Source of the DNA: Mobula hypostoma
Taxonomy: Eukaryota
NCBI RefSeq assembly: GCF_963921235.1
Contig: NC_086108.1
Span: 55,244,001 to 55,308,000 of the forward strand
DNA: 64,000 nucleotides
Reading direction: 5' to 3'
Shown here: positions 4,501 to 64,000 of the stretch, piece by piece
How positions within the stretch are numbered: the first letter of the stretch is position 1
Layout of the letters: every line of letters begins with the position of its first letter
The notes under the pieces: model-generated
Database searches by the model: none
The model's input: only the letters and a program-made list of their open reading frames with translations
What the model was told of the DNA's origin: nothing
Made by a program: the position numbers and the translations under genes

Positions 4501-5669
4501 GTTAGCATATTAGGTAATTGTATATTGTCTTATAACAATGGGATAGATGCATGCTTTCAGACTTTTGTATCTTCTGCCTGATGGGAGGGGGGGAAAAATG
4601 AATGTCCAGGGTAGGGGTATATTTGATTATGCTGTTAGCTTTACCAAGGTAGAGAGTCCATGGAGTGGAGGCTGGCTTCCATGATGTGCTGAATTGTGTT
4701 TTCAACTCTCTGTAGTCTCCTTTGGTCACAGGCAGAACAGTTGTCTTATAGAGCCATGATGTATCTGGATTGGATGCTTTCTAAAACTGGTGAGGGTCAA
4801 AGGAGATGTGCCATATGTTTTTGGGCTCCTGAGGAAGTAGTGATGTTGGTGTGCACTCTTGACTGTAGTATTTATGTGGTTGGATTAAAAAAAAGGTTAT
4901 TGGTGATGTTCTCTCCTAGGAATATGAAGCTCTCAACTTTCTCAACTTCAGCACCATTGAATTAAACAGGAGCATGTGCACTGTCCCCCTTCATGAACTC
5001 AATGACCGGCTATTTTGTTTTCCTGGCACTGAGGTAAAGGTTGTTCTTGTGACATCATGCCATAGGCTCTCTCTCTCACTCCTTTTCCTGTACTCCATTA
5101 TTATGAGATACAGCCCACTATGGCTGTATCATCTGTAAACTTGTATATGGAGTCGGAGGAGTATCTGGCCACACAGTCTTGAGTGTATGGGGATTATAAT
5201 AGGGGGCTGAGGACACACACTTGAGGGGAACTAGTGTTGATAATCGTGATTGAGGTGTTGATACCTATCTGTATTGATTGCAGTCTGTTGGTTGGGAAGT
5301 CAAAGTATTCGGCTGCAATGAGAGGAGGTGTCTCAGTCTCGCAGTTTGGAGATCAGTTTGTTTGGAATGATAGTATTGAAGTTGAAGCTGTAGTTAATAA
5401 ACAATAGTCAAATGTTGGTGTTTTTATGGTCCAGATGCTCCAGAGATATGTAGGGAATTGCCATGCACTGTAGACCAGATTCAGTAACAGGTAAGTTGCA
5501 GTAGGTCAAGGTTGTCTTGGAGGCTGGAGTCAATATATGCCATGACCAGCTTTTTGAAGCACCCATGATGGAAGCCAAAGCTACCGGGCATAGACATTGA
5601 AGTATATTACTTGGTTTATTCAATAGCTGGATGATAGTCATGCCCTTAAGCAAGTGGGAATCTTCTATT

Positions 5670-6056
5670 TGTTGCATAAATTAAGTCACTGGAGAAAAGT
5701 ACTGGTAGAAATGAAGCAGCCTCTTTATTTGACTAAACAAGGTACAGCAAGCATCATATTGATAGTCCTTCAGTGGAAACGTCTGACTGGCCTAATGCTA
5801 CCTGATATTTTGTGTGGCAAACATTAAAGGACAATCCCATATTTACAATATATCCACAATGCTTTCTTTGAAACTACACATAAACTTCACATCTCTGAAA
5901 TCACACTCACACCACAGATGTCTAAATGAATTCTGATCATCATTGTCCAGTCTGGGAGCTGCACTTTAAATTTAAATCTACAATCTATATTCAGAATTGA
6001 AGATCGGTGGCTGAAGTTATTTACTAAATGTTCAAAACCCAAAAATCGCTCTAGCA
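5670..6056 (-). repeat. ERV 3' LTR
   Basis: TGTTGCAT...CTCTAGCA; direct repeat of 10102-10509; minus-strand AATAAA at ~5724-5729. Confidence 0.88.
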
Positions 6057-6068
6057 GTCCCTGCTCTT
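6057..6068 (-). other. Polypurine tract (AAGAGCAGGGAC)
   Basis: Purine-rich run immediately 5' of the 3' LTR on the minus strand. Confidence 0.65.
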
Positions 6069-6779
6069 GGCCGTCCTGGACAAAAATAAATTTGTAGCAG
6101 AAAGGCCAAACTCAAATAGGGCAGCAGAAATGCCCTGCCATGGAATTCCCTCAATTACATTATGTGCATTTACCTCTAGCCTATCTTCCCTAATGGTACC
6201 TACAAAATGCTAAGCAGAGTGATTGTTCCAGAAATTTGAACAACAGTCTTTAGAAATGTAGCTTTGTTTGTATGCCTTTTGGCTCTTTCCCCATTGGCTG
6301 GTTACAGCTTAATCAAATTTCTTGTCTTCACCCCTTCACTCTCTTTCCAGAGGCACCAGCAAGTTAAGTTCATCAAGCTCAAGGGTCCTCTCATTAATGC
6401 ACAGGAAGGGGCTGGGGTGGGCTCTATTTGAATGACTGCAAGGACCTCTCCCTCATGGCACTAACTTCCGAATTGTCCAGTTGATCGCTGACCCCAGCCA
6501 CTGAAAGGGGCTAGCTCGCCTGCATTCAGCCTTGGGATGACTGCCTTCAGAGGCCATGTGCAATCTTTCTCAGGTTGCCATGCCATCAAAGTTATGGAAC
6601 CTGATGTCTCTGCTTTAACTCTGTGTCCTGTGGTCACCTTCCCGTTTCCTGTGGGTGTGTTTCCATTAACTGTGAGCAGGTCTGGTGTGGTCGGCTGATG
6701 TTCATCTCTTAGGTTCTCTGTAACTACATGTTTACTGGGTACACTTGATTCCCCGGCTCTCTCTGGGGGCAATGTGAAG

Positions 6780-7760
6780 ATGAGTCGTACAGTGTAACCC
6801 GAGTCCAGTGTTTCCTCTGACTACCTCGCCGAGTCTGCACACAGGCGCAAGTGTCACTTGTTAAAAGTGCTGTCTGTGGTCCCATTCATCTGGGAGCAAG
6901 CCCTGCTCTTTTCTGGCAGCACCCTCACCATGTCTTGGTCACCCTGCTATCTCCTTTCCATCTGGCTCTCTCTCTCTGATCAGCAATGTGCTGCTGTTGT
7001 TTTGCTTGGCCCTTTAACATATTAAGTTGGTTACAAAGGTCCTTCGCATACTGTCATTCTATCCCTGAAAGTCCCAAGCTCACTGCAACCTATAATTACC
7101 CCATCAGAGAGTCACATGGCTTGCCCTATCAGTAATTCGTAGGGGACTGAGACCCAGCGTGCGGTTTGGGGTTGCTCGCAATCTCATCAGAATTCCTGGT
7201 AGTACATTAACCCATGTCTTTCCCATCTCAGCTATAGCTTTGGCTAAGGCATTCTTGATTGTAAGGCATCCTTTCTCCTATTCCTGAACTCTGAGGGTGG
7301 TAGGGTATGTAGAACTATTGTTGATTCCCTAAGAGTCAGCATATTTCCCTAATCACTTTCCCTGTGAAATGTGCTCCTTGATCTGAGTCCACCTGGACTG
7401 GGGTTTCCCACCTTGGGAGGATTTCTTGAACTAGAATTGGTGTTGATCCTTGTTGGGAAAGCCTTTACCCGCTGGATGATGTGATCTATAACTACTAGAC
7501 AACTGCTGTTTGGCAGGGGCCCTGTGAAGTCCATCTGGATGTTATCCCAGGGTCCCCTTGGCCATGGCTAGTTTGTCAGCTGTGGCTTTAAGCCCTTACC
7601 AGAGTTATACTGGGCATAAGTGGTACTACAGTAGCAGAGCTTCTCAACGTCCCCAACCATCCCTAGCCACCACTAGTCTAGCCAAAGTCTTGTGATCATG
7701 CTCTGTCTTCCCTGATGTATCACCCTCTGGTATGACATCAGGAGGATCTTCCTAATGCAT
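6780..7760 (-). pseudogene. pol: Retroviral integrase remnant
   Basis: Degenerate zinc-finger region (HQG...WW..M..DV...AQYN), WDNIQMDFTGPLP, SDQGAHFTG, FYIPYHPQSSG, C-terminal PR*MGPQTALLTSDT...HWT; contains stops and frameshifts. Confidence 0.85.
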
Positions 7761-7909
7761 GGTGGGGCCACTGCAACTCCTTCCACCCCATGGGTCCAGA
7801 TCCTATCTGGTCCCTTTTCTCCCTTTCTCCTCTATATATTTTTTTTATTAAACTGTTTTAAGTCATTTCTTCCTGCACACTTGTAATTTCAATTGCCTCT
7901 TGTTCCTCT

Positions 7910-8858
7910 GTTTTCTTCACATTGATGTCTGCCCACTCATTTCCTTTCTGCTCCTTACTCTCCCCTTTCTGGTGAGCTTTTACTTTAATTGCTGCCACCT
8001 CTGCTGTCAGGCTCACTGCTTCCAGCTGTTGTTGTATTAGGTACCCGTGCTGAATACCTGCCCATATGCTCGTCGTGCCAATGCCATCAGATAATCACGC
8101 TCACCCTGACGGCATACCGGCTGTCTGTGTATGCGTCGCTTAATGTCCACGATACATTCTGTGAAATTGGACGTTATATGATTTGGACGTTGTGCAAACA
8201 CCATATTATATACTTAGCAAACCTATATGGAGTTCTGTAGTGTACCTGTATTGACTAAATAGCCAAGAACTTGCACTAAAACTGTATACTGTACACTATA
8301 ATACATACACTATAATTTTTAATTTCATTTTAACCTTTTTATTTTTTTTCACTTTTTAAACTTTTATGTAAACACTTTCTTAGCCTATATCACACACAAT
8401 TTATCAAAGATGATCAGGATTGTCCACATCACTGTTCTCAACTTCCCCATAGTGTTCCACTGGAAGAGTTTCAGGTTGAATAACCTGCATTTGGAACCCA
8501 TGATGCACTTTACGGTAATATTTTCAAAATAAAATTAAACAGAGAGATAATGCTACTTCACTCAAGAAACACGCGATACACGAGATTGGTTATGTCTGCT
8601 ATGTCACGTTCTCCGATCAGGACTATGGACGTATATGCGATTGGACGTTGTCCGAATGGACGTTAAGCGGCGCACACCTGTATATTTGTTCGTCTGCCTT
8701 TACTGTAGGGTAGTGCTTCTATCAGGGCCACCGGCTCTGCCACCTGGACTGAGAAGCCCCCCGGGAGTGCTCCTGAATCTAATTTGTCACCAGTTTGCTT
8801 CACCATGGCTCACCCAGTCCGTGGCTTACTGTCTATGAAACTCCAAGACCCATCCGTT
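7910..8858 (-). pseudogene. pol: Retroviral-type RNase H remnant, split by a Tigger-like MITE
   Basis: TDGS...G*AMV...SVQVAEPVALIEAL...KGRRTNI|YTDSRYA...VAAIKVKAHQKG...GNEWAD. Confidence 0.85.
8132..8680. mobile_element. Non-autonomous TcMar-Tigger (Tigger3/Golem-like) element
   Basis: Termini TGCGTCGCTTAATGTCCA and TGGACGTTAAGCGGCGCACACCTG are inverted repeats resembling Tigger3 ends; flanked by TA on both sides; the left TIR tip is missing. Confidence 0.75.
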
Positions 8859-9047
8859 TTTTTAAAAAAAATCCTGTTCTTCCCCTTCCAGAGGTTGTTC
8901 CTTCACACTGGTATCTTCTTCCTATTTCTACTTGGCTCTTGTGTGTCTCCCCCCTCTGTTAGGATGGTGCTCATGGGATTCATTCCACTATTGTTACTGA
9001 CTTGTGAACAACTGTCAGTGGTTCAGTTTTTATAGGATACTGCTTAC

Positions 9048-9377
9048 ATAGAAACATAGAAACGTAGAAAATAGGTGCAGGAGTAGACCATTTGGCCCTT
9101 CGAGCCTGTACCACCATTCAGTACGATCATGGCTGATCATCCAACTCAGAACCCTATACCTGCCTTCTCTCCATACCCCCCGATCCCTTTAGCCACAAGG
9201 GCCTTATCTAACTCCCTCTTAAATGAACTGTTTCCTGTGGCAGAGAATTCCACAGATTCACCACTCTCTGTGTGAAGAAGTTTTTCCTCATCTCGGTCCT
9301 AAAAGGTTTCCCCTTTATCCTCAAACTGTGACCCCTCATTCTGGACTTGCCCAACATCGGGAACAATCTTCCTGCGT
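9048..9377 (-). mobile_element. 5'-truncated CR1-type LINE 3' end inserted in the ERV RT start
   Basis: (ACATAGAA)n tail; flanking CTTAC duplication; ERV frame SSK|QYP rejoins when it is removed. Confidence 0.8.
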
Positions 9378-9579
9378 CTTACTGGATTTATGCAAGCCCC
9401 CTTTTATTTTAACTGGGTGTATCTTTACTCGACTCCACTCTTGCTTGTGTCCAGCCCACACTCCTGGGAACTGCTGACAGTAACCCATGGACATCATTCT
9501 GGCTCCAGTCCCTGATGATCGAAGCTGCTGTGATTACGCTGACCATGTTGTGTACTCCGGTTGTACGTGTTCACTTGTC

Positions 9580-9880
9580 CATATTATTTCTCCCTTTCCT
9601 CAACCTGTAATGGCCATTACTTCCTTTGAGATGTTCTTTCCAAGGATAGCACCCTTGTTATTTGGACAGACCCAGAAGTACAGTGGAGCCTGCACCCTGC
9701 TGATTTCGAGTATCTGTGACTTGCTTCTTTCTGTTTTCAATGTTTTTCCTCTTGCACCTGTAATATTAATAGCCTGTCAAGTTGTTGGCAAGGGTAGGTC
9801 AGTTGTTGATACTGATGCTCCTGTGACAACTAACATATAGCATTGCTAGCCCCCTAACAATGCTGTTGTATACAACTGTG
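9580..9880 (-). pseudogene. pro: Retroviral aspartic protease remnant
   Basis: YMLVVTGASVSTT (catalytic D mutated to V) ... AILGKN, followed by PGVWA...PVKIKG...KQYP (start of RT). Confidence 0.8.
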
Positions 9881-10081
9881 GGATAAGGGTGCTGGCAGTG
9901 GGGGGCCGCTGTGACATCTTTTTCTGCCCTAGAAACCACCTTCAGCAGCTCTATGATCTGACTGACAGTCAGATCGGGTGCTGATGAGGTGAGAGATTGC
10001 ACGTCTGCCGTGACTTTTACCTGCTTTTTTTAAATTATAAATCCAAGAGTATTTTCACTTTGCTCACTTTGATGCAAATAT

Positions 10082-10099
10082 ATCCCACTCCTGACCCCA
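10082..10099 (-). other. Primer-binding site complementary to tRNA-Leu
   Basis: TGGGGTCAGGAGTGGGAT, 2 nt after the 5' LTR; 17/18 match to the vertebrate tRNA-Leu(CAG) 3' end ATCCCACTCCTGACACCA (recalled sequence). Confidence 0.8.
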
Positions 10100-10101
10100 A
10101 A

Positions 10102-10509
10102 TGTTGCATGAATAAAGTCGCGGGAAAAAAGTACTGGTAGATATGAAGCAGCCTCTTTATTTGACAAAACAAGATAGAGCAGGCATCGTTTTGAGACTCT
10201 TTTGGTGGACAGGTCTGGCTGGCTCAACACTACCTGTTATTTTATGTGCTAAACATCAAAGGACACTTCCATATTTACAATGTATCCACAATGCTTTCTT
10301 GGAAATGCACACAAACTTCAAACTTCCTGATTCACACTTGAACCACACCTATCAAAATTAATTTTAATCAGCATTGTCTGGTCAGTAATTCAAGGCTTTG
10401 ATGAATCTATTGTTCAGAGCTGTCTTTTAAATTAAATCTATAATCTATATCCAGATTTGAAGTTTGGTCACTAAAACTATCTGCTAAACCCCAAAAGTCA
10501 CTCTTAACA
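10102..10509 (-). repeat. ERV 5' LTR
   Basis: TGTTGCAT...CTCTTAACA; direct repeat of 5670-6056. Confidence 0.88.
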
Positions 10510-10648
10510 ATATTGAAGCAGGTGAAGTTTAAAAATGTGTGCAGATATACTTGCTGGGCAATCTACATAGGGTCTGAGGACGTTGCCGGGGACACTAGCT
10601 GAGCCAGATGCTTTCAGGGTTCACTCTCCAGAAAACTGATCTTGTTTC

Positions 10649-11406
10649 TGTTACGTGTCCACATTTTTGTTTTCCTGGGAGTCCATAGTTTCGTTTACTG
10701 TGAGCATTACATGTCGCCAGTTTCATTTTACTGGGAGTCCACAGTTTCGTTTCTGTGAGCGTTACCTTATGACATATGCTGATGGTATAAAAGAAATTTG
10801 GACATAGTGCTGAGGAGGAGTTGAAGGAAAGAGAGAGAGAGAGTGAAGATTGTAGACTTCGAGCTGTCAAGGAACAGCTCATGATCAAGAAGGGTAAAGT
10901 CTAATGCTTACCCATACCCAAAGGATTGGGTTAATCAGCGGCACACTGTGCATTGTGGAGACGTATCTGTCCTTCATATGATCCATGAGTGTGGATTTTG
11001 TGACAGTCACTTTGTGAAATCGCTCTTCGTGGTCGTTGGAACAGCATTTCTCGGCTGGGATTATCGGTAACCGTTTCTTCGTTCGCTAGCCGTGGAATCT
11101 TTGGAATTCATCGTGATCGCCTCGTCGCTGCACTGTGAATCCACAAGTCTCTCCTCTCACCTATTTCGTGAATTACTGGGACTCTCTGAACTGCCACTTT
11201 AAGACTGTGCTTCAGTAAGATTTGTTAAGAACGGGTTTGACTGTAAGGGAGCTATAGACGCATAACACTGTTAACTTCTGTTTAAGAAAGTAGTTTATTT
11301 AATTTTCTATATTTTTGAGTAGATGTTAATAAATATAGTGGTTTTAATATTAAAACCCAACTCAATTTGTCATCTCTTGCTGCTGCTATGTTACAGAATC
11401 GTAACA
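10649..11406 (+). mobile_element. Solo LTR of an unrelated LTR element
   Basis: Inverted termini TGTTACG...CGTAACA; perfect 4-bp TSD TTTC; TATAAAA ~10786 and AATAAA ~11328. Confidence 0.85.
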
Positions 11407-19390: not shown

Positions 19391-21493
19391 AGGTGGGAAA
19401 CCTTCAAAGCAGAAATTTTGAGAGTGCAGAATTTGTATGTTCCTGTCAGGATTAAAGGCAAGGTGAATAGGAATAAGGAACCTAGGTTCTCAAGGGATAT
19501 TGCAACTCTGATAAAGAAGAAGACGGAGTTGTATGATGTGCATAGGAAGCAGGGAGTAAATAAGGTGCTTGAGGAGTATAAGAAGTGCAAGAAAATACTT
19601 TAAGAAAGAAATCAGGAGGGCTAAAAGAAGACATGAGGTTGCCTTGGCAGTCAAAGTGAAGGATAATCCAAAGAGCTTTTACAGGTATATTAAGAGCAAA
19701 AGGATTGTAAGGGATAAAATTGGTCCTCTTGAAGATCAGAGCGGTCAGCTATGTGCGGAACCAAAGGAAATGGGGGAGATCTTAAATAGGTTTTTTACAT
19801 CTGTGTTTACGAAGGAAACTGGCATGAAGTCTATGGAATTAAGGGAAACAAGTAGTGAGATCATGGAAACTGTACAGATCGAAAAGGAGGAGGTCCTTGC
19901 TGTCTCGAGGAAAATTAAAGTGGATCAATCCCCAGGACCTGACAGGATGTTCCCTCGGACCTTGAAGGAGACTAGTGTTGAAATTGCAGGGGCCCTGGCT
20001 GAAATATTTAAAATGTCGCTGTCTACAGGTGAGATGCTGGAGGATTGGAGAGTGGATCGTGTTGTTCCGTTGTTTAAAAAAGGATCGAAAAGTGATCCGG
20101 GAAATTATAGGCCAGTAAGTTTAACGTCGGTAGTAGGTAATTTATTGGAGGGAGTACTAAGAGACAGAATCTACAAGCATTTAGGTAGACTGGGACTTAT
20201 TAGGGAGAGTCAACATGGCTTTGTGCGTGGTAGGTCATGTTTGACCAATCTATTGGAGTTTTTCGAGGAGGTTACCAGGAAAGTGGATGAAGGGAAGGCA
20301 GAGGATATTGTCTACATGGACTTCAGTAAGGCCTTTGACAAGGTCCCGCATGGGAGGTTAGTTAGGAAAATTCAGTCGCTAGGTATACATGGAGAGGTGG
20401 TAAATTGGATTAGACATTGGCTCGATGGGAGAAGCCAGAGAGTGGTGGTAGAGAATTGCTTCTCTGAGTGGAGGCCTGTGACTAGTGGTGTGCCACAGGG
20501 ATCAGTGCTGGGTCCATTGTTATTTGTCATCTATATCAATGATCTGGATGATAATGTGGTAAATTGGATCAGCAAGTTTGCTGATGATACAAAGATTGGA
20601 GGTGTAGTAGACAGTGAGGAAGGTTTTCAGAGCCTGCAGAGGGACTTGGACCAGCTGGAAAAATGGGCTAAAAAATGGCAGATGGAGATTAATACTGACA
20701 AGTGTGAGGTATTGCACGTTGGAAGGACAAACCACTGTAGAACATACAGGGTTAATGGTAAGGCACTGAGGAGTGCAGTGGAACAGAGGGATCTGGGAAT
20801 ACAGATACAAAATTCCCTAAAAGTGGCGTCACAGGTAGATAGGGTTGTAAAGAGAGTTTTTGGTACATTGGCCTTTATTAATCAAAGTATTGAGTATAAG
20901 AGCTGGAATGTTATGATGAGGTTGTATAAGGCATTGGTGAGGCTGAATCTGGAGTATTGTGTTCAGTTTTGGTCACCAAATTACAGGAAGGATATAAATA
21001 AGGTTGAAAGAGTGCAGAGAAGGTGTACAAGGATGTTGCCGGGACTTGAGAAACTCAGTTACAGAGAAAGGTTGAGTAGGTTTGGACTTTATTCCCTGGA
21101 GCGTAGAAGAATGAGGGGAGATTTGATAGAGGTATATAAAATTATGATGGGTATAGATAGAGTGAATGCAAGCAGGCTTTTTCCACTGAGGCAAGGGAGA
21201 AAGAAACCAGAGGACATGGGTTTAGGGTGAGGAGGGAAAAGTTTAAAGGGAACATTAGGGGGGGCTTCTTCACACAGAGTGGTGGGAGTATGGAATGAGC
21301 TACCAGATAAGGTGGTAAATGCGGGTTCTTTTTTTAACATTTAAGAATAAATTGGACAGATACATGGATGGGAGGTGTATGGAGGGATATGGTCCGTGTG
21401 CAGGTCAGTGGGACTAGGCAGAAAATGGTTCAGCACAGCCAAGAAGGGCCAAAAGGCCTGTTTCTGTGCTGTAGTTTCTATGGTTTCTATGGA
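19391..21493 (+). mobile_element. Young 5'-truncated CR1 LINE
   Basis: Long uninterrupted RT frame; (TTTCTATGG)n tail; L1 sequence rejoins on either side. Confidence 0.93.
19569..21230 (+). CDS. CR1 ORF2 reverse transcriptase region (553-aa open frame, lacks endonuclease)
   Basis: PGPD, NYRPVSLTS, YMDFSKAFDKVPH, GVPQGSVLGP, KFADDTK motifs. Confidence 0.85.
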   Translation: MRSIRSARKYFKKEIRRAKRRHEVALAVKVKDNPKSFYRYIKSKRIVRDKIGPLEDQSGQLCAEPKEMGEILNRFFTSVFTKETGMKSMELRETSSEIMETVQIEKEEVLAVSRKIKVDQSPGPDRMFPRTLKETSVEIAGALAEIFKMSLSTGEMLEDWRVDRVVPLFKKGSKSDPGNYRPVSLTSVVGNLLEGVLRDRIYKHLGRLGLIRESQHGFVRGRSCLTNLLEFFEEVTRKVDEGKAEDIVYMDFSKAFDKVPHGRLVRKIQSLGIHGEVVNWIRHWLDGRSQRVVVENCFSEWRPVTSGVPQGSVLGPLLFVIYINDLDDNVVNWISKFADDTKIGGVVDSEEGFQSLQRDLDQLEKWAKKWQMEINTDKCEVLHVGRTNHCRTYRVNGKALRSAVEQRDLGIQIQNSLKVASQVDRVVKRVFGTLAFINQSIEYKSWNVMMRLYKALVRLNLEYCVQFWSPNYRKDINKVERVQRRCTRMLPGLEKLSYRERLSRFGLYSLERRRMRGDLIEVYKIMMGIDRVNASRLFPLRQGRKKPEDMGLG

Positions 21494-28699: not shown

Positions 28700-31600
28700 T
28701 CAAGAATCTGTCAACCCCTGCCTTAAGCATAGATAAAGACTTGGCCAAAGGTATCAAGGTGGCAGGGATTGAACAGAAAGTGGCGTTATTCGCAGATGAT
28801 GTTTTGGTCTATCTGAGTGAACCAGAAAAATCATTTATAGGATTGTTTACACTGTTGGATGACTTTGGGAAAATATCAGGTTATAAAATAAATGTAAAGA
28901 AAACGCAGGTTATGTCCCTAAATTATACACCATCCAAAAAATTGCAGGATACATACGATCTTAAGTGGGAAGCTAAATCATTAAAATATTTAGGAATAAC
29001 CCTGCCGAAGGATCTTTCAACACTGTCACAGGTAAATTATGGGCCTTTAATCTCAGAGATAAAAGCAGATATGCATAGATGGAATCTTATCCCTTTTTAA
29101 GTTTAAATTCAAGGATAAATACTATAAAAATGAATATTCTTCCTCGGTTATTGTATCTTTTCCGTACTTTACCAGTGGAGGTGGATGATAATCAATTCAG
29201 GGAATGGGACAAATGGATTTTCCGCTTCATTTGGCAAGGAAGGAAACCTAGAATTCGATATAACACCTTACAGTTAGGGAAGGAAGGAGGAGGTATGGTT
29301 CTTCCTTGCCTGAGAAATTATTTTTATGCCTCACAGATAACCCCTCTGTTATATTGGTGTAATAGGGAATATAAGGCTAGATGGAAGGAAATAGAATTTG
29401 GATTAGTTGACAGTTTTCCTCTTCAGGCCTCAATAGCTGACAAAGGATTGATGGCCCAGTTGGAAAAATTTAATAATGCTTGGATAAATCTTACATTAAA
29501 AGTATGGCAGAAGGTGGTTAATTCATGTGGAATTAATAACATGTTAAAACTCTTTAGATGGTGTGCATATGATACCGAATTCCTTCCCAACAGAGGAGAT
29601 AAAAGATTTGAGCTATGGATAAAGAAAGGTCTTACAACCTACCTCTCATTTATAGATAAAAGAGTATTACAAAGTTTCCAAATCCTGCAGGACAAACATG
29701 GCCAAGAACATAATGACTTTTTTAGGTACCTTCAAATACGAAACTATGTTAACCAGAGTTGTAGATATACAGACCTATCAAAAGTAGAATTAGAATTTTT
29801 CAAGATTCTGAATTCGGCTTGCAGTTCAATACCTAGTAAATCAGTTTCTCGCCTATATAATGCACTCTCCCATGCTAAAAATGTAAATACACTGTATATT
29901 AAAGAGAAGTGGGAGAAAGAAGCAGGGTTGGTACTTTCAGAGGAGGCTTGGGGGAAAATCTGCAGCTTTCAATGGTCCTCGACTAATTCTTTGACTTGGA
30001 GAGAACATTGTTGGAAAAACATTATAAGATACTTCAAGACCCCATATCAGGAAAAATATAAAGATATAAATATGATGTGTTAGAGAAGGTGTGGCTCCAA
30101 GGAGGCGAATCATTTTCATATTTTCTGGGATTGCCCTAAATTAAGTCTATTTTGGGAAGGTATTCATAGAACATTAGTTAAGGTACTTAGGTCCCAGATA
30201 CCTCTGAACTTTGAGATGCTCTATTTGGGGCATGTAATGTTCCTTGAACAGAAGGAAGATATAAAGTTGCTGCAGGCCCTCTTAGCGGCAAGTAAGAAAT
30301 CAATCACTAGAAAATGGCTAAATCCAATACCACCTACATTAGAAGATTGGTACGAAATTATCTTGGAAATATTTAAAATGGAAAAGTTGACTTACTCCCT
30401 GAGAACTCAAAAAGAAACGTTTTATCAAATCTGGAATAAATGGATTGAATATATAACCCCAATGCGAGCAGACTTTAGATGACTCTCCTAATGATTTATA
30501 TTGCTCTTCTCATCAACACAGTAATATTGCTAACGTAAACACCCCTAGTCTAAATGTTTGTTTTTTTTGGAAAATAGAGAATTAACACAAGTAAAGGGAA
30601 AGATTTGGGAAAGGGATAAAAAAAATGAAAAAATTAAGTAAATAAGTACATAGGGATTGGATAATTATGTCTGCGGGCAGGAACAAGCATGAACAAATTG
30701 GGATATAAACACCTACAATGGTTGGTATATAGGCTTGTATGCAACATTTTGGACCAGTGGAAATGGTCCAGAAGGGTTGTATGGAAACTATTATTACCAT
30801 TTTTCTTAACAACTAATTTCATTACTTAGCCTAATAGGTTAGATTTACCACAGTACATAATTATCTATTTAAATGTTTATTTTCCTTTTATATCATCTCA
30901 ATGTGTACTTAAGAATGTATAAATAATTGTAGTTTTATACATATAAAAAAATGGAAAAGGTTATATGTGTGAAAAAAGTACATGATAATTGTGAATTCCT
31001 TATCCAAATAAAAATAAAATTTTAAAAAAAAGATAAAGACTTGGCCTTCACAGTTATCTGTGGCAATGAATTCCATAGATTTACCATTCTCTGGCTAAAG
31101 AAATTCCTCCTCATCTCTGTTCCAAAATGCTGCCCCACTATTCTGAGGCCGTCCTCCTGATCTTGGACTCTCCAACCATAGGAAACATCCTCTTTACATC
31201 CACTCTATCAAGGCCTTTTACTATTTGATAGGTTTCAATGAAGTCACCCCTTATTCTTCTGAGTTCTCCTGAATACAGGCCCGGAGCCATCAAATACTTT
31301 TCACATGACAAGCCATTTAATCCTGGAATCATTTTCATGAACCTTCCTTGAACTTTCTCCAGTTACAGCACATTTCTAGGATGAGGGCCCAAAACTGCTC
31401 CCAATACTCCAAATGACACCTCACCAGTGCTTTATAAAGTTTCAACACTACATCTTTGCTTTTATATTCTAGCCATCTTGAAATCAATGCTAACGTGCAT
31501 TTGCCTTCCTTACCACAGACTGCAAACTAACCTTCAGCGAATCCTGCACAAGGACTCCCAAATCCCTTTGCGCCTCAGTTTTTTGTATTTTCTCTCCATT

Positions 31601-32535
31601 TAGAAAATAGTCAATCCTTCATTTATTCTACCAAAGTGCATGACCAGACACTTCCTGACACTGTATTCCATCTGCTACTTCTTTGCCCATTCTCCTAATT
31701 TGTCTAGGTCTTTCTGTAGCCTCTCTACTTCCTCAAAACTACCTGACCCTCCACCTATCATCATATTGTTTGCAAATGTTGCAATAAAGCCATCAGTTCC
31801 ATCATCCAAATCATTGATATATAACGTACAAAGAATTGATCCCAACACAGATCTCTGTGGAACACCAGTAGTCACCAGCAGCCAACCAGAAAAGGTTCAC
31901 TTTATTCCCACTCTTTGCCTCCTGCCATTTGGCCATTGCTTTATCCATGTAAAATCTTTCCTGTAATAGCATGGGCTTGTAGCTTGTTAAGCAGCCTCAT
32001 GTATGACACCTTATCAAAGGCCTTCTGAAAATCTAAGTACACAACATCAACTGATTCTCCTTTGTCTAACCTGTTATTTCTTCACAGAATTCCAACAGAT
32101 TTGTCAGGCAAGATTTTCCCTTGAGGAAACCATGCTGACTATTGCCTATTTTATGATTTGGCTCCAAGAACCCTGAGGCCTTATCCTTAATATTTGACTC
32201 CAACATCTTCCCATCCACTGAGGTCAGGCTAACTGGCCTCTGGTTTCCTTTCTTCTGCCACTTTCATTTCTTGAAGAGTGTAATGACTTTTTCAATTTTC
32301 CAGTCTTCCGGGAGCATTCCAGAATTTAGTGATTCCTGAAAGGTCATTACTATTGCCTCCACAATGTCTTCTGCCACCTCTTTCAGAACCTTGGGGCATG
32401 CACTAGCTGGTCCAGCTGATTTGTCTATCTTCAGACCTGTCAGTTTCCCCAAATATCTTCTCCCTAGTAATGGTAACTTCACATAATTCATGACCCCTGA
32501 CCCCTGGAACTTCCACCATACTGTTAGTGTCTTCT
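28700..32535 (-). mobile_element. CR1 LINE fragment (28700-28746 and 31047-32535) interrupted by L1
   Basis: GVPQRSVLG, YINDLDD, PEDWKI motifs on the minus strand. Confidence 0.85.
28747..31030 (+). mobile_element. Young 5'-truncated fish-type L1 (ORF2 3' half, 3' UTR, poly-A)
   Basis: ALFADDVLVYL, KYLGI, KMNILPRLLYLF; 16-bp TSD AGATAAAGACTTGGCC (28731-28746 and 31031-31046); AATAAA plus A tail. Confidence 0.93.
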
Positions 32536-40500: not shown

Positions 40501-41204
40501 TCACTATTACTGCAATAATTAAGTATTGTTCATGTCTTATTGGACTAGTGCATCTTTTCCATGTTGTCATGGTAGGTAAATCAGTTTATCATTTCAATAC
40601 GACTTGGCAGAAGATAAACTGTCCTTGGTTACTGATATGTGCATATTTGATACTGGAACATCAGAACAAGTAGGTGTCTAGCTTGATTTTTTTTAACTTC
40701 TTTTTGAGTCGGCTGTCTTGGCTGGAGTGGAAGAGGTTGTATAGCATTTGAGAGTTTAGCAATAATGTGATGATGTGGGCAAGACTTAAAAAGATTCATG
40801 CTATTATTAACTTTGAAGTGTAAGTGCCCTAAGATTCTGTGATGTCCTTGTATTTGCATAAGCATTTGCTTTTGGTATTGTGTACGCAATCATGCAGCTT
40901 TTCAAATATATTTTTATAGTTTGAAGTAATGTTATTAAATTTAACACTGAAAGAACAATTACTTTTCAGAAGCTTTCAAGTAACCTCTATTTTGCTGCAA
41001 CCTTTCCTTTTGAAGGGAGTGTGAATTGTATTGAATCAAATGCACAACTTAGAAGTGATTCTTCAAGGCTATTCGTTGTTTTGTTATGGCTGGCTGTTTA
41101 TTGACTGCTTTCAAAAGGAATAAAATTATGTTGTTTGCGTATGTCAGTAAATCACCTTTATTCAGTAGATGCTGTGGCATGTATTTGAAGCATTATCGTC
41201 CAAG

Positions 41205-44200
41205 ATATCCTGCAGTGGGAGGGAGAACAGCCAGAGGTCGTGGTACATATTGGTACCAATGACATAAGTAGGAAAAGGGAAGTCCTGAAAAAAGACTACA
41301 GGGAGTTAGGAAGGAAGTTGAGAAGCAAGACTGCAAAGGTAGTGATCTCGGGATTACTGCCTATGCCGTGCAACAGTGAGAATAGGAATAGAATGAGGTG
41401 GAGGATAAATGTGTGGCTGAGAGATTGGAGCAGGGGGCAGGGATTCAGATTTCTGGATCATTGGGACCTCTTTTTGGGCAGGTGTGACCTGTACAAAAAG
41501 GACGGGTTGCACTTGGATCCCAGGGGGACCAATATCCTGGCGGGGAGGTTTGCTAAGGCTACTGGTGAGAATTCAAACTTGGAATTGCCGGGTGGTGGGA
41601 ACCGAACCGAAGAGCTGGAGGAAGGGGTGGTTGGCTCACAAATAGAGAAAGCTTGTAGACAGTGCGAGAGGAAAGAGAGGCAGGTGATAGAGTAGGGTTG
41701 TGCTCAGACCGAAGGTTTCAGATGTATCTATTTTAATGCAAGGAGTGTTGTGAACAAAGCGGATGAGCTTAGAGCCTGGATCAGTACTTGGAGATATGAT
41801 GTGGTGGCTATTACAGAGACTTGGATGGCTCAGGGACAGGAATGTTTACTTCAAGTACCGGGTTTTAGATGCTTCAGAAAGGACAGGGAGGGAGGCAAAA
41901 GAGGTGTGGGCATGGCACTATTGATCAGAGATAGTGTCATGGCTGCAGAAAAGGTGAACGCCATGGAGGGGTTGTCTACGGAATTTCTGTGGGTGGAAGT
42001 TAGGAACAGGAAGGGGTCAATAACTTTACTGGGTGTTTTTTATAGGCCGCCCAATAGTAACAGGGGTATTGAGGAGCAGATAGGGAAACAGATCCTGGAA
42101 AGGTGTAATAATAACAGAGTTGTCGTGATGGGAGATTTTAATTTCCCAAGTATCAATTGGTATCTCCCTACAGCGAGGGGTTTAGATGGGGTGGAGTTTG
42201 TTAGGTGTGTTCAGGAAGGTTTTTTGATACAATATGTAGATAAGCCTACAAGACGAGAGGCTGTACTTGATTTGGTATTGGGAAATTAACCTGGTCAGGT
42301 GTCAGATCTCTCAGTGGGAGAGCATTTTGGAGATGGTGATCATAATTCTATCTCCTTTACCATAGTATTGGAGAGAGATAGGAACAGACAAGTTAGAAAA
42401 GCGTTTAATTGGAGTAAGGGGAATTATGAGGCTATTAGGCAGGAACTTGGAAGCATAAATTGGAAACAGATGTTCTCAGGGAAAAATACAGAAGAAATGT
42501 AGCAAATGTTCAGGGGATACTTGTGTGGAGTTCTGCATAGGTACATTCCAATGAGACAGGGAAGTTATGGTAGGGTACAGGAACCGTGGTGTACAAAGGC
42601 TGTAATAAATCTAGTCAAGAAGAAAAGAAAAGCTTACTAAAGGTTCAGGAACTAGGTAGTCTTAGAGATCTAGAAGATTACAAGGCTAATAGGAAGGAGT
42701 TTAAGAAGGAAATTAGGAAAGCCAGAAGGGGCCATGAGAAGGCCTTGGCGAGCAGGATTAAGGAAAACCCCAAGGCATTTTACAAGTATATTAAGAACAA
42801 GAGGATAAGACGTGAAAGAATAGGACCTATGAAGTGTGACAGTGGGAAAGTGTGTATGGAACTGGAGGAAACAGCAGAGGTACTTAATGAATACTTCAGT
42901 GTTCACTATGCAAAAGGATCTTGGTGATCGTAGTGATGACTTGCAGCAGACTGAAAAGCTTGAGCGTGTAGATATTAAGAAAGAGGATGTGCTGGAGCTT
43001 TTGGAAAGGATCAAGTTGGATAAGTCGCTGGGACAGGATGAGATGTACCCTAGGCTACTGTGGAAGGCAAGGGAGGAGATTGCTGAGCCTCTGGAAATGA
43101 TCTTTGCATCATCAATGGGGACAGGAGAGGTTCTGGAGGATTGGAGGGTTGTGAATGTTGTTCCTTTATTCAAGAAAGGGAGTAGAGATAGCCCAGGAAA
43201 TTATAGACCAGTGAGTCTTACTTCAGTGGTTGGTAAGTTGATGGAGAAGATCCTGAGAGGCAGGATTTATGAACATTTGGAGAGGTATAACATGATTAGG
43301 AGTAGTCAGTATGGCTTTGTCAAGGGCAGATCATGCCTTACGAACCTGATTGAATTTTTGAGGATGTGACTAAACACATTGATGAAGGAAGAGCAGTAGA
43401 TGTAGTGTATATAGATTTCAGCAAGGCATTTAATAAGGTATCCCATGCAAGGATTATTGAGAAAGTAAGGAGGAATGAGATCCAAGGGGACATTGCTTTG
43501 TGGATCCAGAACTGCCTTGCCAACAGAAGGCAAAGAGTGGTTGTAGGCAGGTCATACTCTGCATGGAGGTCGGTCACTAGTGGAGTGCCTCAGGGATCTG
43601 TTCTGGGACCCTTACTCTTCGTGATTTTTATAAATGAGCTGGATGAAAAAGTGGAGAGATGGGTTAGAAAATTTGCTGATGACACGAAGGTTGGATGTGT
43701 TGCGGATAGTGTGGAGGGCTGTCAGAGATTACAGCGATTGACATTGATAGGATGCAAAACTGGGCTGAGAAGTGTCAGATGGAGTTCAACCCAGATGAGT
43801 GTGAAGTGGTTCATTTTGGTAGGTCAAATATGATGGCAGAATATAGTATTGATGGTAAGACTCTTGGCAGTGTGGAGGATCAGAGGAATCTTGGGGTCCG
43901 AGTCCATAGGACGCTCAAAGCAGCTGCGCGGGTTGGCTGTGTGGTTAAGAAGGCATACAGTGTATTGGCCTTCATCAATCATGGAATTGAATTTAGGAGC
44001 CAAGAGGTAATGTTGCAGCTATATAGGACAATGATCAGACCCCACTTGGAGTACTGTGCTTAGTTCGGCTTGCCTCTCTACAGGAAGGATATGGAAGCCA
44101 TAGAAAGGGTGCAGAGGAGATTTACAAGGATCTTGCCTGGATTGGAGAGCGTGCCTTATGAGAATAGGTTGAGTGAACTCGGCCTTTTCTCCTTGGAGCA

Positions 44201-44582
44201 ATGGAGCATGAGAGGTGACCTGATAGAGGTGTATAAGATGATGAGAGGCACTGATCGTGTAGATAGTCAGAGGCTTTATCCCAGGGCTGAAATGGTTGCC
44301 ACAAGTGGACACAGATTTAAGGTGCTGGTGTTTAGCTACAGAGGAGATACCAGGGGTAAATTTTTTACTCAGAGAATGGTGAGTGCGTGGAATGGGCTGC
44401 TGGCAATGGTGGTGAAGGCGGATACGATAGGGTCTTTTAAGAGACTTTTGGATAGGTACTTGGAGCTTAGAAAAATAGAGGGCTATAGGTAAGCCTAGCA
44501 ATCTATAAGGTAGAGGCATGTTCGGCACAACTTTGTGGGCTGAAAGGCTTGTATTGTGCTGTAGGTTTTCTATGTTTCTATA
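41205..44582 (+). mobile_element. Long CR1 LINE: ORF1 esterase C-terminus, APE endonuclease and RT, disrupted
   Basis: VHIGTND...DGLHL (SGNH esterase), ITETW, YRPPN, MGDFN, LDLVL, KFADDTK; TTTCTA tail. Confidence 0.93.
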
Positions 44583-44934
44583 TTTGGAAATGTAGTAAGT
44601 ATCCACTAATGGGCTGAACTGAACAGAAATGGCTAGCTTCCAGGTTGAACAGATGTAGCAGTAGCTTCGGTACAAACTAATTGCTTTGCTACTATTCAAA
44701 TAGAAAAATAATACTTTGGAGTCACAATGGATTTACTTTATGTTGGCTGAGTTATCGATTAGAGGTGAAACTGGTTGTGAAATTGCAGCCATGGTTTGTT
44801 TTTCTATCTGATAATATAAAAGGATATTAAATTCTGCCAGGAAGTAAGAGAATTGGTAGAATTGGCACTCGCTGAAAGTACCACTCCTCAGAAATAAGTT
44901 GATTTAATTTCAGAATCAGGTTTATTATTGCATA

Positions 44935-47853: not shown

Positions 47854-48295
47854 ACTTCACTATTATAGCCACTATGATACCAGGACTCGGGGCCTTTACT
47901 TCACCGTTATAGCCAGTATGATACCAGGACTCGGGGCCTTTACTTCACCGTTATAGCCAGTATGATACCAGGACTCGGGGCCTTTACTTCACCGTTATAG
48001 CCAGTATGATACCAGGACTCGGGGCCTTTACTTCACCATTATAGCCAGTATGATACCGGGACTTGGGGCCTTTACTTCACCGTTATAACCAGTATGATAC
48101 CGGGACTCGAGGCCTTTACTTCACCGTTATAACCAGTATGATACCGGGACTCGGGCCCTTTACTTCACCGTTATAGCCAGTATGATACCGGGACTCGAGG
48201 CCTTTACTTCACCGTTATAACCAGTATGATACCGGGACTCGAGGCCTTTACTTCACCGTTATAGCCAGTATGATATCGGGACTCGGGGCCTTTAC
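47854..48295. repeat. 44-bp minisatellite, ~10 copies
   Basis: Unit ACTTCACCGTTATAGCCAGTATGATACCRGGACTCGGGGCCTTT repeated head-to-tail with no spacers. Confidence 0.95.
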
Positions 48296-49181: not shown

Positions 49182-51183
49182 AACGCAAACACGAGGAATT
49201 CTGCAGATGCTGGAAATTCAAGCAACACACATCAAAGTTGCTGGTGAACGCAGCAGGCCAGGCAGCATCTCTAGGAAGAGGTACAGTCGACGTTTCAGGC
49301 CGAGACCCTTCGTCAGGACTAACTGAAGGAAGAGCTAGGAAGAGATTTGAGGGGGGAGGGGGAGATTCAAAATGATAGGAGAAGACAGGAGGGGGAGGGA
49401 TGGAGCCAAGGGCTGGACAGGTGATTGGCAAAGGGGATATGAGAGGATCATGGGACAGGTGGCCCAGGGAGAAAGAAAGGGGGGGAGGTCCCAGAGGATG
49501 AGCAAGGGGTATAGTCAGAGGGACAGAGGGAGAAAAAGGAGAGAGAAAAAGAATGTGTGTATATAAATAAATAATGGATGAGGTACGAGGGGGAGATGGG
49601 GCATTAGCGGAAGTTTGAGAAGTCAATGTTCATGCCATCAGGTTGGAGGCTACCCAGACGGAATATAAGGTGTTGTTCCTCCAACCTGAGTGTGGCTTCA
49701 TCTTTACAGTAGAGGAGGCCGTGGATAGACATATCAGAATGGGAATGGGATGGGGAATTAAAATGTGTGGCCACTGGGAGATCCTGCTTTCTCTGGCAGA
49801 CAGAGCGTAGGTGTTCAGCGAAATGATCTCCCAGTCTGCGTCGGGTCTCGCCAATATATAGGAGGCCACATCGGGAGCACCGGACGCAGTATATCACCCC
49901 AGCCGACTCACAGGCGAAGTGTTGCCTCACCTGGAAGGACTGTCTGGGCCTGAATGGTGGTGAGGGAGGAAGTGTAAGGGCACGTGTAGCACTTGTTCTG
50001 TTTACAAGGAGAAGTGCCAGGAGGGAGATCGGTAGGGAGGGATGGGGGGGGACGAATTGACAAGGGAGTCGCGTGGGGAGCGATCCCTGCGGAAAGCAGA
50101 GTGGGGGGAGGGAAAGATGTGCTTAGTGGTGGGATCCCGTTGGAGGTGGCACATCCGCTCCCACTCCATCCTCCTGTCACCCCACTAGGAATAGGGTTCC
50201 CCTTGTCCTCACCTACCATCCCACCAGCCTCTGGGTCCAACATAGTATTCTCCGTAACTTCCGCCTCCTCCAACGGGATCCCACCACTAAGCACATCTTT
50301 CCCTCCCCCCCCCCCCAGCTTTCCGCAGGGATCACTCCCTACGCGACTCCCTTGTCCATTCGTAACCCCCCATCCCTCCCCACTGATCTCCCTCCTGGCA
50401 CTTATACTTGTAAGCAGAACAAGTGCTACACATGCGCTTACACTTCCTCCCTTACCACCACTCAGGGCCCCAGACAGTCCTTCCAGGTGAGGCGACGCTT
50501 TACCTGTGAGTCGGCTGGTGTGATATACTGTGTCTGGTGCTCCCGATGTGGCCTTCTATATATTGGTGAGACTCGACGCAGACTGGGAGATCATTTTGCT
50601 GAACACCTACGCTCTGTCTGCCAGAGAAAGCAGGATCTCCCAGTGGTCACACATTTTAATTCCACATCCCATTCCCATTCTGATTTGTCTATCCACGGCC
50701 TCCTCTACTGTACAGATGAAGCCACACTCAGGTTGGAGGAACAACACCTTATATTCCGTCTGGGTAGCCTCCAACCTGAAGGCATGAACATCGACTTCTC
50801 AAAATCCGCTAATGCCCCACCTCCTCGTCATACCCCATCCGTTATTTATTTATATACACACATTCTTTTTCTCTCTCTCTCTTTTCTCCCTCTGTCTCTC
50901 TCACTATACCCCTTGCCCATCCTCTGGGTCCCCCCCCCACCCTTTCTTTCTCCTTGGGCCTCCTGTCCCATGATCCTCTCATATCCCTTTTGCCAATCAC
51001 CTGTCCAGCTCTTGGCTCCATCCCTCCCCCTCCTGTCTTCTCCTATCATTTTGGATCTCCCCCTCCCCCTCCCACTTTAAAATCTCTTACTAGCTCTTCC
51101 TTCAGTTAGTCCTGACGAAGGGTCTCAGCCTGAAACGTTGACTGTACCTCTTCCTAGAGATGCTGCCTGGCCTGCTGCGTTCA
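49182..51183. mobile_element. Penelope-like element (GIY-YIG endonuclease) as two inverted arms (minus ~49182-50149; plus ~50150-51183)
   Basis: GVIYCVRCSRCGLLYIGETRRRLGDHFAEH...PVATHFN on both strands; imperfect TSD CAAGCTAGAAAGG / CATGCTGGAAAGG. Confidence 0.92.
49285..49320 (-). ncRNA. Minimal type I hammerhead ribozyme motif in PLE terminus
   Basis: AGTC-CTGACGA-A-GGGTCTCGGCCT-GAAAC-GTC-GACT on the minus strand. Confidence 0.75.
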
Positions 51184-58200: not shown

Positions 58201-59013
58201 CCATCCCCTTCTCGCAATTCCTCCGTCTCCACCACATCTGCTCTCAGGATGAGGCTTTTCATTCCAGGACGAGGGAGATGTCTTCCTTTTTTAAAGAAAG
58301 GGGCTTCCCTTCCTCCACCATCAATTCTGCTCTCAAACGCATCTCCCCCATTTCACGCACATCTGCTCTCACTCCATCCTCCCGCCACCCCACTAGGCAT
58401 AGGATTCCCCTGGTCCTTACCTACCACCCCACCAGCCTCCGGGTCCAACATATTATTCTCCGTAACTTCCTCCACCTCCAACGGGATCCCACCACTAAGC
58501 ACATCTTTCCCTCCCCCCCCCGCCCTGCTTTCTGCAAGGATCGCTCCCTACACGACTCCCTTGTCCATTCGTCCCCCCCCCATCCCTCCCCACTGATCTC
58601 CCTCCTGGCACTTATCCTTGTAAGCGGAAGAAGTGCTACACATGCCCTTACACTTCCTCCCTTACCACCATTCAGGGCCCCAGACAGGCCTTCCAGGTGA
58701 GGCGATACTTCACTTGTGAGTCGGCTGGGGTGATATACTGCGTCCGGTGTTCCCGATGTGGCCTTCTATATATTGGCGAGACTCGACGCAGACTGGGAGA
58801 TGGTTTCGCTGAACACGTACGCTCTGTCTGCCAGAGAAAGCAGGATCTCCCAGTGGCCACACATTTTAATTCCACATCCCATTCCCTTTCTGATATGTCT
58901 ATCCATGGCCTCCTCTACTGTAAAGATGAAGCCACACACATGTTGGAGGAACAACACCTTGTATTCCATCTGGGTAGCCTCCAACCTGATGGCATGAACA
59001 TTGACTTCTCTAA

Positions 59014-59448
<435 letters not shown>

Positions 59449-59449
59449 T

Positions 59450-59485
59450 AGTCCTGACGAAGGGTCTCGGCCCGAAACGTCGACT
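59450..59485 (+). ncRNA. Minimal type I hammerhead ribozyme motif (best copy)
   Basis: Stem I AGTC/GACT, core CTGACGA, stem II GGGT-CTCG-GCCC, GAAA, loopless palindromic stem III ACGT, GTC cleavage triplet. Confidence 0.82.
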
Positions 59486-63700: not shown

Positions 63701-64000
63701 CTATGTCGTTGGTACCAAAATGTACCAGGGCTTCTGGCTGCTCACCCTCCCATTTCAAGTTATTGTGGATACATTCAGAAACATCACAAAGCTTGGCACC
63801 TGGGAGGCAAACTACCATCCACTGCCATCTTTCTCATTCCCAATGAATCACCTATCTGTTCCCCTAACTATAGAGTCCCCTATTACTGCTGCTATCCTCT
63901 TCCGTTCCCGACCCTTCTGAGTCACAGGGCCAGACGGTGTCAGAGGCATGGCCACAGGGTTGCTCTTCACTACCTGAAGCTCTCCCTTCCCAGTCACCCA
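60703..64000 (-). mobile_element. Long CR1 LINE (ORF1 esterase, APE, RT), disrupted, running to the window edge
   Basis: VVCLPGAK...VHFGTND, GGGVALII, LDLVLGN, PGPDEMYPR, YMDFSKAFDK; CATAGAA tail. Confidence 0.92.

Follow-up and report, generated by a model that had tools for sequence, protein, structure and literature searches.

A decayed provirus of Mobula hypostoma and its probable place in a turtle and shark branch of clade Huo

Structure of the provirus

The stretch of Mobula hypostoma DNA that was analysed (64,000 nucleotides, contig NC_086108.1, positions 55,244,001 to 55,308,000 of assembly GCF_963921235.1; hereafter the window) contains a minus-strand provirus that is decayed and internally deleted, with many stop codons and frame changes. 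In this minus-strand orientation the LTR at 10102-10509 is the 5' LTR. The features are listed in the orientation of the element.

10510..10514, no strand: target-site duplication (TSD), right copy ATATT, 4/5 match to the left copy
10102..10509, minus: 5' LTR, 408 bp, TG...CA, AATAAA at 10156-10161
10082..10099, minus: primer-binding site (PBS), tRNA-Leu(CAG), 2 nt inside the 5' LTR
9879..10081, minus: leader and short gag tail, ~200 bp, gag mostly gone
9378..9878, minus: protease and RT start, single frame with 3 stops, resembling rh_ty_ERV4 and pe_si_ERV12 by eye
9048..9377, no strand: inserted LINE 3' tail, 5-bp duplication on both flanks
9022..9047, minus: RT N-terminus, final remnant, QYPI at 9042, from sequence comparison
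8681..9021, minus: tether end plus N-terminal half of RNase H (TDGS at 8857)
8132..8680, no strand: inserted MITE, terminal inverted repeats with a 17/21 match
7880..8131, minus: RNase H C-terminal half (YTDSRYA, KVKAH, GN..AD), broken
7100..7783, minus: degenerate zinc-binding region and catalytic core of integrase, with stops and frame changes
6790..6969, minus: integrase C-terminal domain remnant, GPY/F-like, blastp E 6e-4
6069..6789, minus: 3' region, no homology assigned, ~720 bp
6057..6068, minus: polypurine tract, weak, 10/12 purines before the 3' LTR
5670..6056, minus: 3' LTR, 387 bp, TG...CA, AATAAA at 5724-5729
5665..5669, no strand: TSD, left copy CTATT, 4/5 match to 10510-10514

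The original prediction, made from the letters alone, had proposed a diverged LTR pair, and the two LTRs aligned from end to end with 301 of 377 columns identical (80%) and a K2P divergence of 0.238 (95% CI 0.18-0.30). Both begin with TG, end with CA and carry AATAAA near the minus-strand 3' end. The proposed 5-bp TSD was also upheld, a 4/5 match being reached by 1.9% of random 5-mer pairs from the window and the 4-bp and 6-bp readings matching one base each. The predicted leucine tRNA PBS was found, and presumably matches the end of tRNA-Leu(CAG) at 17 of 18 positions. No tRNA gene was detected in the 64-kb window for comparison with the PBS. Fourteen of the PBS bases are present in tRNA-Leu(CAG) gene primers in the accessible part of a preprint (bioRxiv 10.1101/2020.12.15.422816). 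A purine-rich tract does precede the 3' LTR, as expected of the predicted polypurine tract, and it is a weak one.

Remnants of the predicted protease, RNase H and integrase were all recovered by sequence comparison, with stops and frame changes, and from 5' to 3' the provirus still has protease, RT start, tether end, RNase H and integrase in succession. The protease matched a gammaretroviral Pol (blastp E 3e-6) and gave no match in Pfam or PDB. A second RNase H, of the vertebrate retrovirus type, sits between the tether and the integrase; paired TG...CA LTRs, PBS, TSD and second RNase H, which characterize retrovirus-type elements, are thus all present. The best PDB match of the integrase N-terminal half was foamy virus integrase (E 2e-8), the Pfam rve match (E 7e-5) fell under the curated cut-off, and the D-X35-E spacing is kept. 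The GPY/F-like remnant matched two class I Pols (P0022 and P0023) at the listed E value and had no Pfam match.

The provirus has lost the RT core and almost the whole of gag, which the original prediction did not mention. QYPI and TDGS lie 185 nt apart, against 431-459 residues in four references, and the RT/tether deletion junction lies in the upper part of 8681..9021. Because it has no RT, the provirus is unable to copy itself; the copy is dead, and there is no sign of a host function. In the ~720-bp 3' region no env was found and no relevant Pfam match to any family, nor a PDB match in two frames, nor a tblastn match among 41 reference loci, and a conserved open reading frame was unsupported, stop density being not below that of shuffles (P=0.37). 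The env gene may be deleted or too decayed in this region. Capture of a host gene there likewise had no support from Pfam, PDB or the viral references. There was no Pfam match to dUTPase in three frames, some lineages being known to lose dUTPase, and no accessory genes were found in the provirus.

The two inserts that had been proposed at 8132-8680 and 9048-9377 are real, as contigs that skip them were present in 4/4 sequencing runs, with joints at 8061>8681 and 9046>9405 respectively. We take the MITE to be Tigger-like and the LINE tail to be of CR1 type. The LINE tail resembles further places in the window, and its read-contig depth is very high.

Copies, shared site and age

Contigs covered the whole of the internal region in 4/4 runs, and at one integrase site ~50 contigs per run carried a difference from the window; the provirus is a member of a family with many copies. 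One contig (run X5, record 32) spans the junction of the 5' LTR and its flank at 10354-10699 with six differences, and the provirus occupies the same site in a related species. The closest copies in runs X5, X10 and X11 stop matching at 10057. The copy would have been fixed long before the split of the two related organisms carrying the site (~11 times older), decay would have followed fixation, and at least part of the leader and gag loss would have been late.

The best protein match was to the RNase H of XP_059837178.1 from Hypanus sabinus (63-65% identical, 63% over 123 columns), in line with the cartilaginous host that the original prediction had inferred, and in the RNase H tree this protein and the window row were sisters (99/97). 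This 'ribonuclease HI-like' protein is probably a copy from the same family that was annotated as a gene model; it differs in being a 150-residue fragment and in coming from another ray (Atlantic stingray).

At rates of 2, 1 or 0.5 e-9 per site per year the LTR divergence of 0.238 corresponds to 60, 119 or 238 Myr, and at 2.2e-10, the rate used by Han (2015), to an implausible ~540 Myr. An absolute date was rejected as unreliable. The LTRs are 7-10 times more diverged than those of two dated elephant-shark ERVs. A locus common to related species could calibrate ERV age in batoids.

Further relatives were sought in several ways. With the RNase H alignment as query, a homolog search gave 17 Pols, 33-44% identical and none of them close, which look class I by motifs and trees. 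A word-indexed homolog search with two integrase pieces gave no match, nor did scans of viral contigs for related loci, whether the queries came from the window or from the family, and a protein cluster atlas search named only RNase H clusters. The single match of a metagenome scan (L044) was discarded as a chance bacterial-type contig. The batoid ERV literature, searched outside most subscription journals, Repbase and Dfam, yielded no description of the family.

Likeness to turtle and shark ERVs

Clade Huo, in which snakehead retrovirus (SnRV) groups with class III ERVs, is defined by RT phylogeny and the RT core is missing here, so protease, RT start and RNase H served as proxies. Identities were counted by eye against the S2 data of Xu et al. 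(2018; PMC6001957), over the first 400 letters of each row. The protease start was identical to that of the whale-shark consensus rh_ty_ERV4 at 20 of 26 positions, against at most 9/26 in 19 references, and the RT start was identical to that of the turtle consensus pe_si_ERV12 at 18 of 38 ungapped positions, against at most 9/38 in 27 references. In the S2 tip order both consensus elements lie between SnRV and the foamy clade, and they appear to belong to clade Huo, as read from the order of the figure text and not from its topology. The accessible part of the same survey reports no reptile member of clade Tu.

At the protease start ~52 of 71 bases are identical to rh_ty_ERV4 by eye, and the RT start has a similar pattern. 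The second half of the protease is only weakly alike, so this is a different family, and rh_ty_ERV4 in the rows available keeps gag zinc fingers and RT, both of which the window copy lacks. The turtle consensus elements pe_si_ERV12, ch_my_ERV12, ma_te_ERV13 and ch_pi_ERV20 all have the H-K-x-x-x-Q-Y-P-I-K end in these rows, and their group also takes in ap_sp_ERV15. Their hosts are turtles whereas the window element is in a ray, and the comparison covered the RT start.

These data suggest that the locus is most probably a dead, deleted provirus of a multicopy ERV family belonging to a deep turtle and shark branch of clade Huo. The ancestor would have used tRNA-Leu(CAG) of the host to prime reverse transcription, made a 5-bp staggered cut on integration and spread through germ-line copies. 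Such an assignment extends to rays a thinly described Huo branch hitherto represented by turtle and whale-shark consensus ERVs; only three cartilaginous fishes are covered by the Xu et al. (2018) survey, according to its accessible part. The suggestion of a poorly sampled deep lineage therefore stands as to thin sampling and not as to novelty, since shark and turtle consensus ERVs match.

Class I-like and class III-like features had further been put forward as an unusual mixture. This did not hold up, as the same mixture has been described for SnRV- and Ovex1-related ERVs. The integrase of SnRV, a virus regarded as intermediate between epsilon and spuma-like viruses (Jern 2005), also ends in an MLV-type domain (Pfam MLVIN_C, E 1e-5; W-x-G-P-Y). 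In the sections available, GPY/F motifs are noted in SnRV/Ovex1-related ERVs (Chong 2014; PMC4299795), the RNase H and integrase of Ovex1 resemble those of SnRV, MLV, WEHV and foamy virus about equally, a comparison made by description (Carre-Eusebe et al. 2009; PMC2717909), and SnRV-like ERVs are known from a chimaera (CmiERV lineage I; Han 2015; PMC4422223). The combination of a class I-like RNase H motif and GPY/F-type tail with class III-like TSD and primer is thus largely expected, being the reported SnRV/Ovex1-related state and no new hybrid.

RNase H and integrase phylogeny and competing assignments

SnRV (locus L019, identified through the SnRV row in the PMC7947760 supplement) shares with the window element S-x-Q-V-A-E-x-V-A-L-x-E-A-L, KVKAH and a GPY/F-type integrase tail, at 34% (RNase H) and 28% (integrase) identity. 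In the RNase H trees the window, P0004, P0006 and SnRV grouped at 88/95 and 90/92, unstarred, SnRV forming a long branch. In the integrase tree the window did not group with SnRV and was sister to class I (93/97, 94/94), which itself grouped without the window at 92/89 and in 93% of bootstrap trees. The RNase H and integrase had been expected to cluster firmly within no described family; this was borne out for the integrase, which joins no reference family, and less so for the RNase H, whose grouping with SnRV has moderate support (90/92). The trees were built without ERV-L, ERV-S, ERV4, Ovex1, lokiretrovirus, rh_ty_ERV4 or fish foamy-like ERV sequences, and near-duplicate or long-branch rows were dropped (10/35 and 16/35 for integrase, 8/32 and 12/32 for RNase H).

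The prediction of a retrovirus-type element that is neither standard class I nor ERV-L or foamy was upheld. The 5-bp TSD agrees with ERV3/ERV-L; assignment to ERV-L was nevertheless rejected, since the window RNase H has YTDSRYA against TDSWA in HERV-L and MuERV-L and a GPY/F-like remnant is present. ERV4, compared by description in the accessible part of Chong et al. (2014; PMC4299795), has a 5-bp TSD like the window element and no dUTPase, for which no match was found here, but by definition lacks the GPY/F motif and is known only from crocodilians and turtles; it was set aside on the GPY/F-like remnant, itself weak (E 6e-4, no Pfam support). A spumavirus-like (clade Tu) assignment was rejected by AU tests of window plus foamy for RNase H (p=0.023) and integrase (p=0.033), in trees without fish foamy-like ERVs. 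A lokiretrovirus assignment is opposed by the RNase H motifs of 13 lokiretrovirus rows, which differ by eye. Lokiretroviruses are also marked by an RT sister to that of all retroviruses and by a fusion-protein-like Env, and neither an RT core nor an env was found in this copy.

The discordance between RNase H, with SnRV, and integrase, outside class I, might reflect a mosaic, in which a Huo-type protease, RT and RNase H were joined, by replacement or by recombination at the RT deletion, to an integrase of separate source near the class I stem. Placing the window with SnRV in the integrase tree was weakly rejected (AU p=0.032, SnRV being the sole Huo reference), repeated replacement of integrase and RNase H has been reported (Wang and Han 2021), and the 5' and 3' halves meet at the deletion junction. 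However, the RNase H lies 3' of this junction and yet groups with SnRV, contrary to recombination there. The window integrase may simply be the normal integrase of the turtle/shark branch; the crocodile consensus cr_po_ERV12 has a similar integrase by eye, the SnRV branch is long and the window row is degraded. We consider a mosaic unlikely.

Within the preferred Huo assignment, a tentative extension would have a deep shark-ray-turtle branch basal in Huo, with a separate integrase sister to all gamma/epsilon and outside the groups of Wang and Han; this locus, given a 24% LTR divergence and a host that evolves slowly, would then be a Mesozoic insertion and among the oldest LTR-paired proviruses of cartilaginous fishes. 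Should the integrase position stand up to adequate sampling of Huo, the branch would bear on the origin of class I integrases.

Assignment to class I as a divergent epsilon-like ERV (clade Mu) would account for YTDSRYA and the GPY/F-type tail, and for raw similarity: RNase H and integrase score better with class I Pols than with SnRV, and summed tblastn scores are highest to class I Pols. The integrase core is ~50% identical to WDSV/WEHV over 56 residues, and window plus WDSV/WEHV was not rejected for RNase H (AU p=0.12). Against this, the TSD is of 5 bp, whereas the accessible part of Chong (2014; PMC4299795) gives 4 bp for ERV1 and a 4-bp reading here matches at 1/4; the integrase falls outside the gamma/epsilon group; protease and RT start reach at most 9/26 and 9/38 identities with class I references; and D-x-x-GPLP is absent from every class I Pol whose motif was displayed. 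Class I membership is considered quite improbable.

A position beyond the five described retroviral clades, or among lokiretroviruses or foamy-like elements, is very improbable: integrase identity is about the same to class I, SnRV and foamy (28-32%, one partial row 37%), the N-terminal half of the integrase has the foamy PDB match noted above, one lokiretrovirus integrase is alike by eye and window plus Gypsy was not rejected for integrase (AU p=0.087), leaving a basal position open, but foamy placement is rejected for both domains, lokiretrovirus RNase H rows have DG(C/S), CTDS/CSDS-x-Y and KV(K/P)GH, unlike the window, the lokiretrovirus paper names no cartilaginous host, and published consensus ERVs of shark and turtle match directly. 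The best integrase trees placed the window among retroviruses, and identity to three Gypsy-type rows was 22-25%.

The first integrase and RNase H trees placed the deltaretrovirus rows within class I; this artefact reflects the little signal in these short alignments.

A decayed provirus with recognizable parts

The element is a real, old and dead endogenous retrovirus (ERV). Its coordinates and motifs were correctly given in the original prediction, and the LTR pair proposed there aligned over its full length, at 301 identities in 377 aligned columns with two gaps, of 30 and 8 bases. Each LTR starts with TG, ends with CA and has kept an AATAAA close to the same one of its ends, showing that the element reads on the minus strand:

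10102-10509, minus strand, 5' LTR
5670-6056, minus strand, 3' LTR

The 5-bp target duplication (CTATT/ATATT) was likewise upheld: four of five positions match, a level equalled by random window pairs 1.9% of the time, and both the 4-bp and 6-bp readings of the same flanks fail. The primer site, 18 bases situated 2 nt inside the 5' LTR, shares 14 bases with tRNA-Leu(CAG) gene primers listed in bioRxiv 10.1101/2020.12.15.422816. The polypurine tract is weak, and no tRNA gene was found in the 64-kb window. By standard retroviral biology, reverse transcription would have been primed by tRNA-Leu, the duplication made by integrase and the family spread through the germ line.

Six-frame translation gave, from 5' to 3', a leader/gag tail of ~200 bp, protease and the start of reverse transcriptase (RT), a LINE tail, a QYPI motif and the TDGS motif of RNase H. 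QYPI and TDGS lie within 185 nt, compared with 431–459 residues in four reference Pols; this copy therefore lacks the catalytic core of RT and the greater part of the tether. An element of 549 bp that has inverted ends interrupts RNase H, and the integrase (IN) that follows is spread over several frames, with D-X35-E spacing present and a weak GPY/F-type tail. The ~720 bp preceding the 3' LTR had no detectable homology, to env or anything else, in Pfam, PDB or the viral reference loci; a 119-codon stop-free stretch after the integrase (6461-6820, minus strand) also had none, and its stop density was not below chance. The internal region minus inserts is 3,166 bp, and this copy is incapable of autonomous replication.

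A multicopy family and a shared insertion

Of the 24 runs listed, 20, representing nine coded organisms, contained part of the internal region. Four runs were compared in detail with the window at 80% likeness, and all four covered the entire element. At one integrase site ~50 contigs per run departed from the window sequence, and each run also contained contigs skipping each of the two predicted inserts, which are thus real but secondary in a multicopy family. Among 1.84 billion representatives, the top protein match was the Hypanus sabinus gene model XP_059837178.1 (63–65% identity), in line with a probable batoid host.

In each of the four runs, summed contig depth over 8778-8998 and 9883-10103 was lower than elsewhere in the internal region, by a factor of ~5 to 20; these segments may be absent from many family copies, or else the window copy is <80% identical there. 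The LTR end (5670-5904 and 10104-10324) reached ~3–10 times the internal-region depth in run X1. Abundant solo LTRs would produce this pattern; summed depth does not equal copy number. In runs X5, X10 and X11 the match of the closest copies ended at precisely position 10057 and 106–131 other letters followed, while X1 read through it. A leader/gag deletion private to organism A is likely and, from these contigs, would have occurred late.

One contig from organism B, a species related to A, runs across the junction of 5' LTR and flank, differing at 6 of 346 bases, so the same insertion is present in B. No junction piece for organism D or E was among the matches listed, a minority of the pieces. 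Over four pieces totalling 1,761 bases, organism B showed 37 differences from the window (2.1%), against an LTR–LTR divergence (K2P) of 0.238, making the insertion ~11 times older than the A–B split, provided that there was no LTR conversion. Estimates of absolute age ranged from 60 to 238 Myr over the rates tried (2 to 0.5 e-9 per site per year); shark rates are described as low and uncertain (PMC10587355; PMC10699275).

Probable relationship to the snakehead retrovirus group

The combination of lineage features had been predicted to be unusual, but it is normal for ERVs related to snakehead retrovirus (SnRV). SnRV Pol itself carries an MLV-type IN C-terminal domain, and the virus has been placed between epsilon and spuma-like viruses (Jern et al., 2005, PMC1224870). 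ERV3 and ERV4 have a 5-bp duplication and some SnRV- and Ovex1-related ERVs a GPY/F-like motif (Chong et al., 2014, PMC4299795), and RNase H and IN of Ovex1 are similar to those of SnRV, MLV, WEHV2 and foamy viruses (PMC2717909). A Leu primer site with a 5-bp duplication is reported in frog class III ERVs (PMC8278194), and SnRV-like ERVs in elephant shark (PMC4422223). The window element appears to work like other SnRV/Ovex1-related ERVs.

The clearest lineage signal came from the consensus ERVs of Xu et al. (2018, S2 data), compared over the first 400 letters per row, hence over protease and RT starts, with identities counted by eye. The protease start shared 20 of 26 residues with whale-shark rh_ty_ERV4, and the RT start matched turtle pe_si_ERV12 at 18 of 38, ungapped, and is also common to three more turtle rows; the same anchored counts gave at most 9 identities in 19 protease and 27 RT references. 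Both tips follow SnRV and precede the foamy clade in the text order of the S2 figure, and the spumavirus-like clade Tu is described with no reptile member found (Xu et al., 2018, PMC6001957), so they most likely belong to clade Huo, which includes SnRV and is ascribed the widest host range among the clades (PMC6001957). The window element is most probably a new ray member of a described Huo branch, membership of the clade being defined by RT, whose core is missing here.

Natural references for RNase H and IN were taken from viral contigs: gammaretroviruses, epsilonretroviruses, foamy viruses, deltaretroviruses, three Gypsy-type elements and L019, with RNase H motifs identical to the SnRV row in the PMC7947760 supplement. 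For RNase H, most class I rows were 33–37% identical and the frog fragment P0007 45%, with SnRV at 34% and foamy viruses at 20–23%. RNase H trees, from a short alignment (164 columns) with a degraded window row and a long SnRV, grouped the window RNase H with proteins P0004 and P0006 and SnRV at 88/95 and 90/92; topology tests rejected a foamy grouping (p=0.023) but did not reject one with WDSV/WEHV (p=0.12). P0006, an unnamed protein of 197 residues that spans RNase H and the start of integrase and lies on a 2.4-kb JGI/IMG contig, would be a further member of this branch.

IN identity was 28–32% to class I, SnRV and foamy viruses alike and 22–25% to Gypsy. In IN trees (about 255 columns, with the same degraded row and long SnRV) the window IN branched outside class I, as its sister group; AU tests placing it with SnRV, foamy viruses and Gypsy gave p=0.032, 0.033 and 0.087. 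This position is the one result left over by membership of Huo, SnRV being the only Huo reference in the IN tree. The predicted poorly sampled deep lineage stands in so far as the element is neither foamy nor, by IN, inside class I, but not where protease and RT starts match described, Huo-listed consensus ERVs. A deep shark-ray-turtle branch at the base of Huo, with a separate IN sister to all gamma/epsilon INs and outside the Wang and Han groups, and with a Mesozoic locus among the oldest LTR-paired proviruses of cartilaginous fish, is an unlikely alternative.

Other repeats in the window

The window is dominated by repeats. The elements with inverted arms are presumably Penelope-like, and the LINE fragments we take to be CR1-type.

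49186-51184 and 57897-59570, elements whose inverted arms, ~900 bp long, are 92% identical, plus further inverted copies
47854-48295, tandem array of 88-bp period, 91–95% identity
14701-16275, 19560-21482, 31035-32448, 41189-44732 and 60799-63769, many LINE fragments, one with a 556-codon open frame
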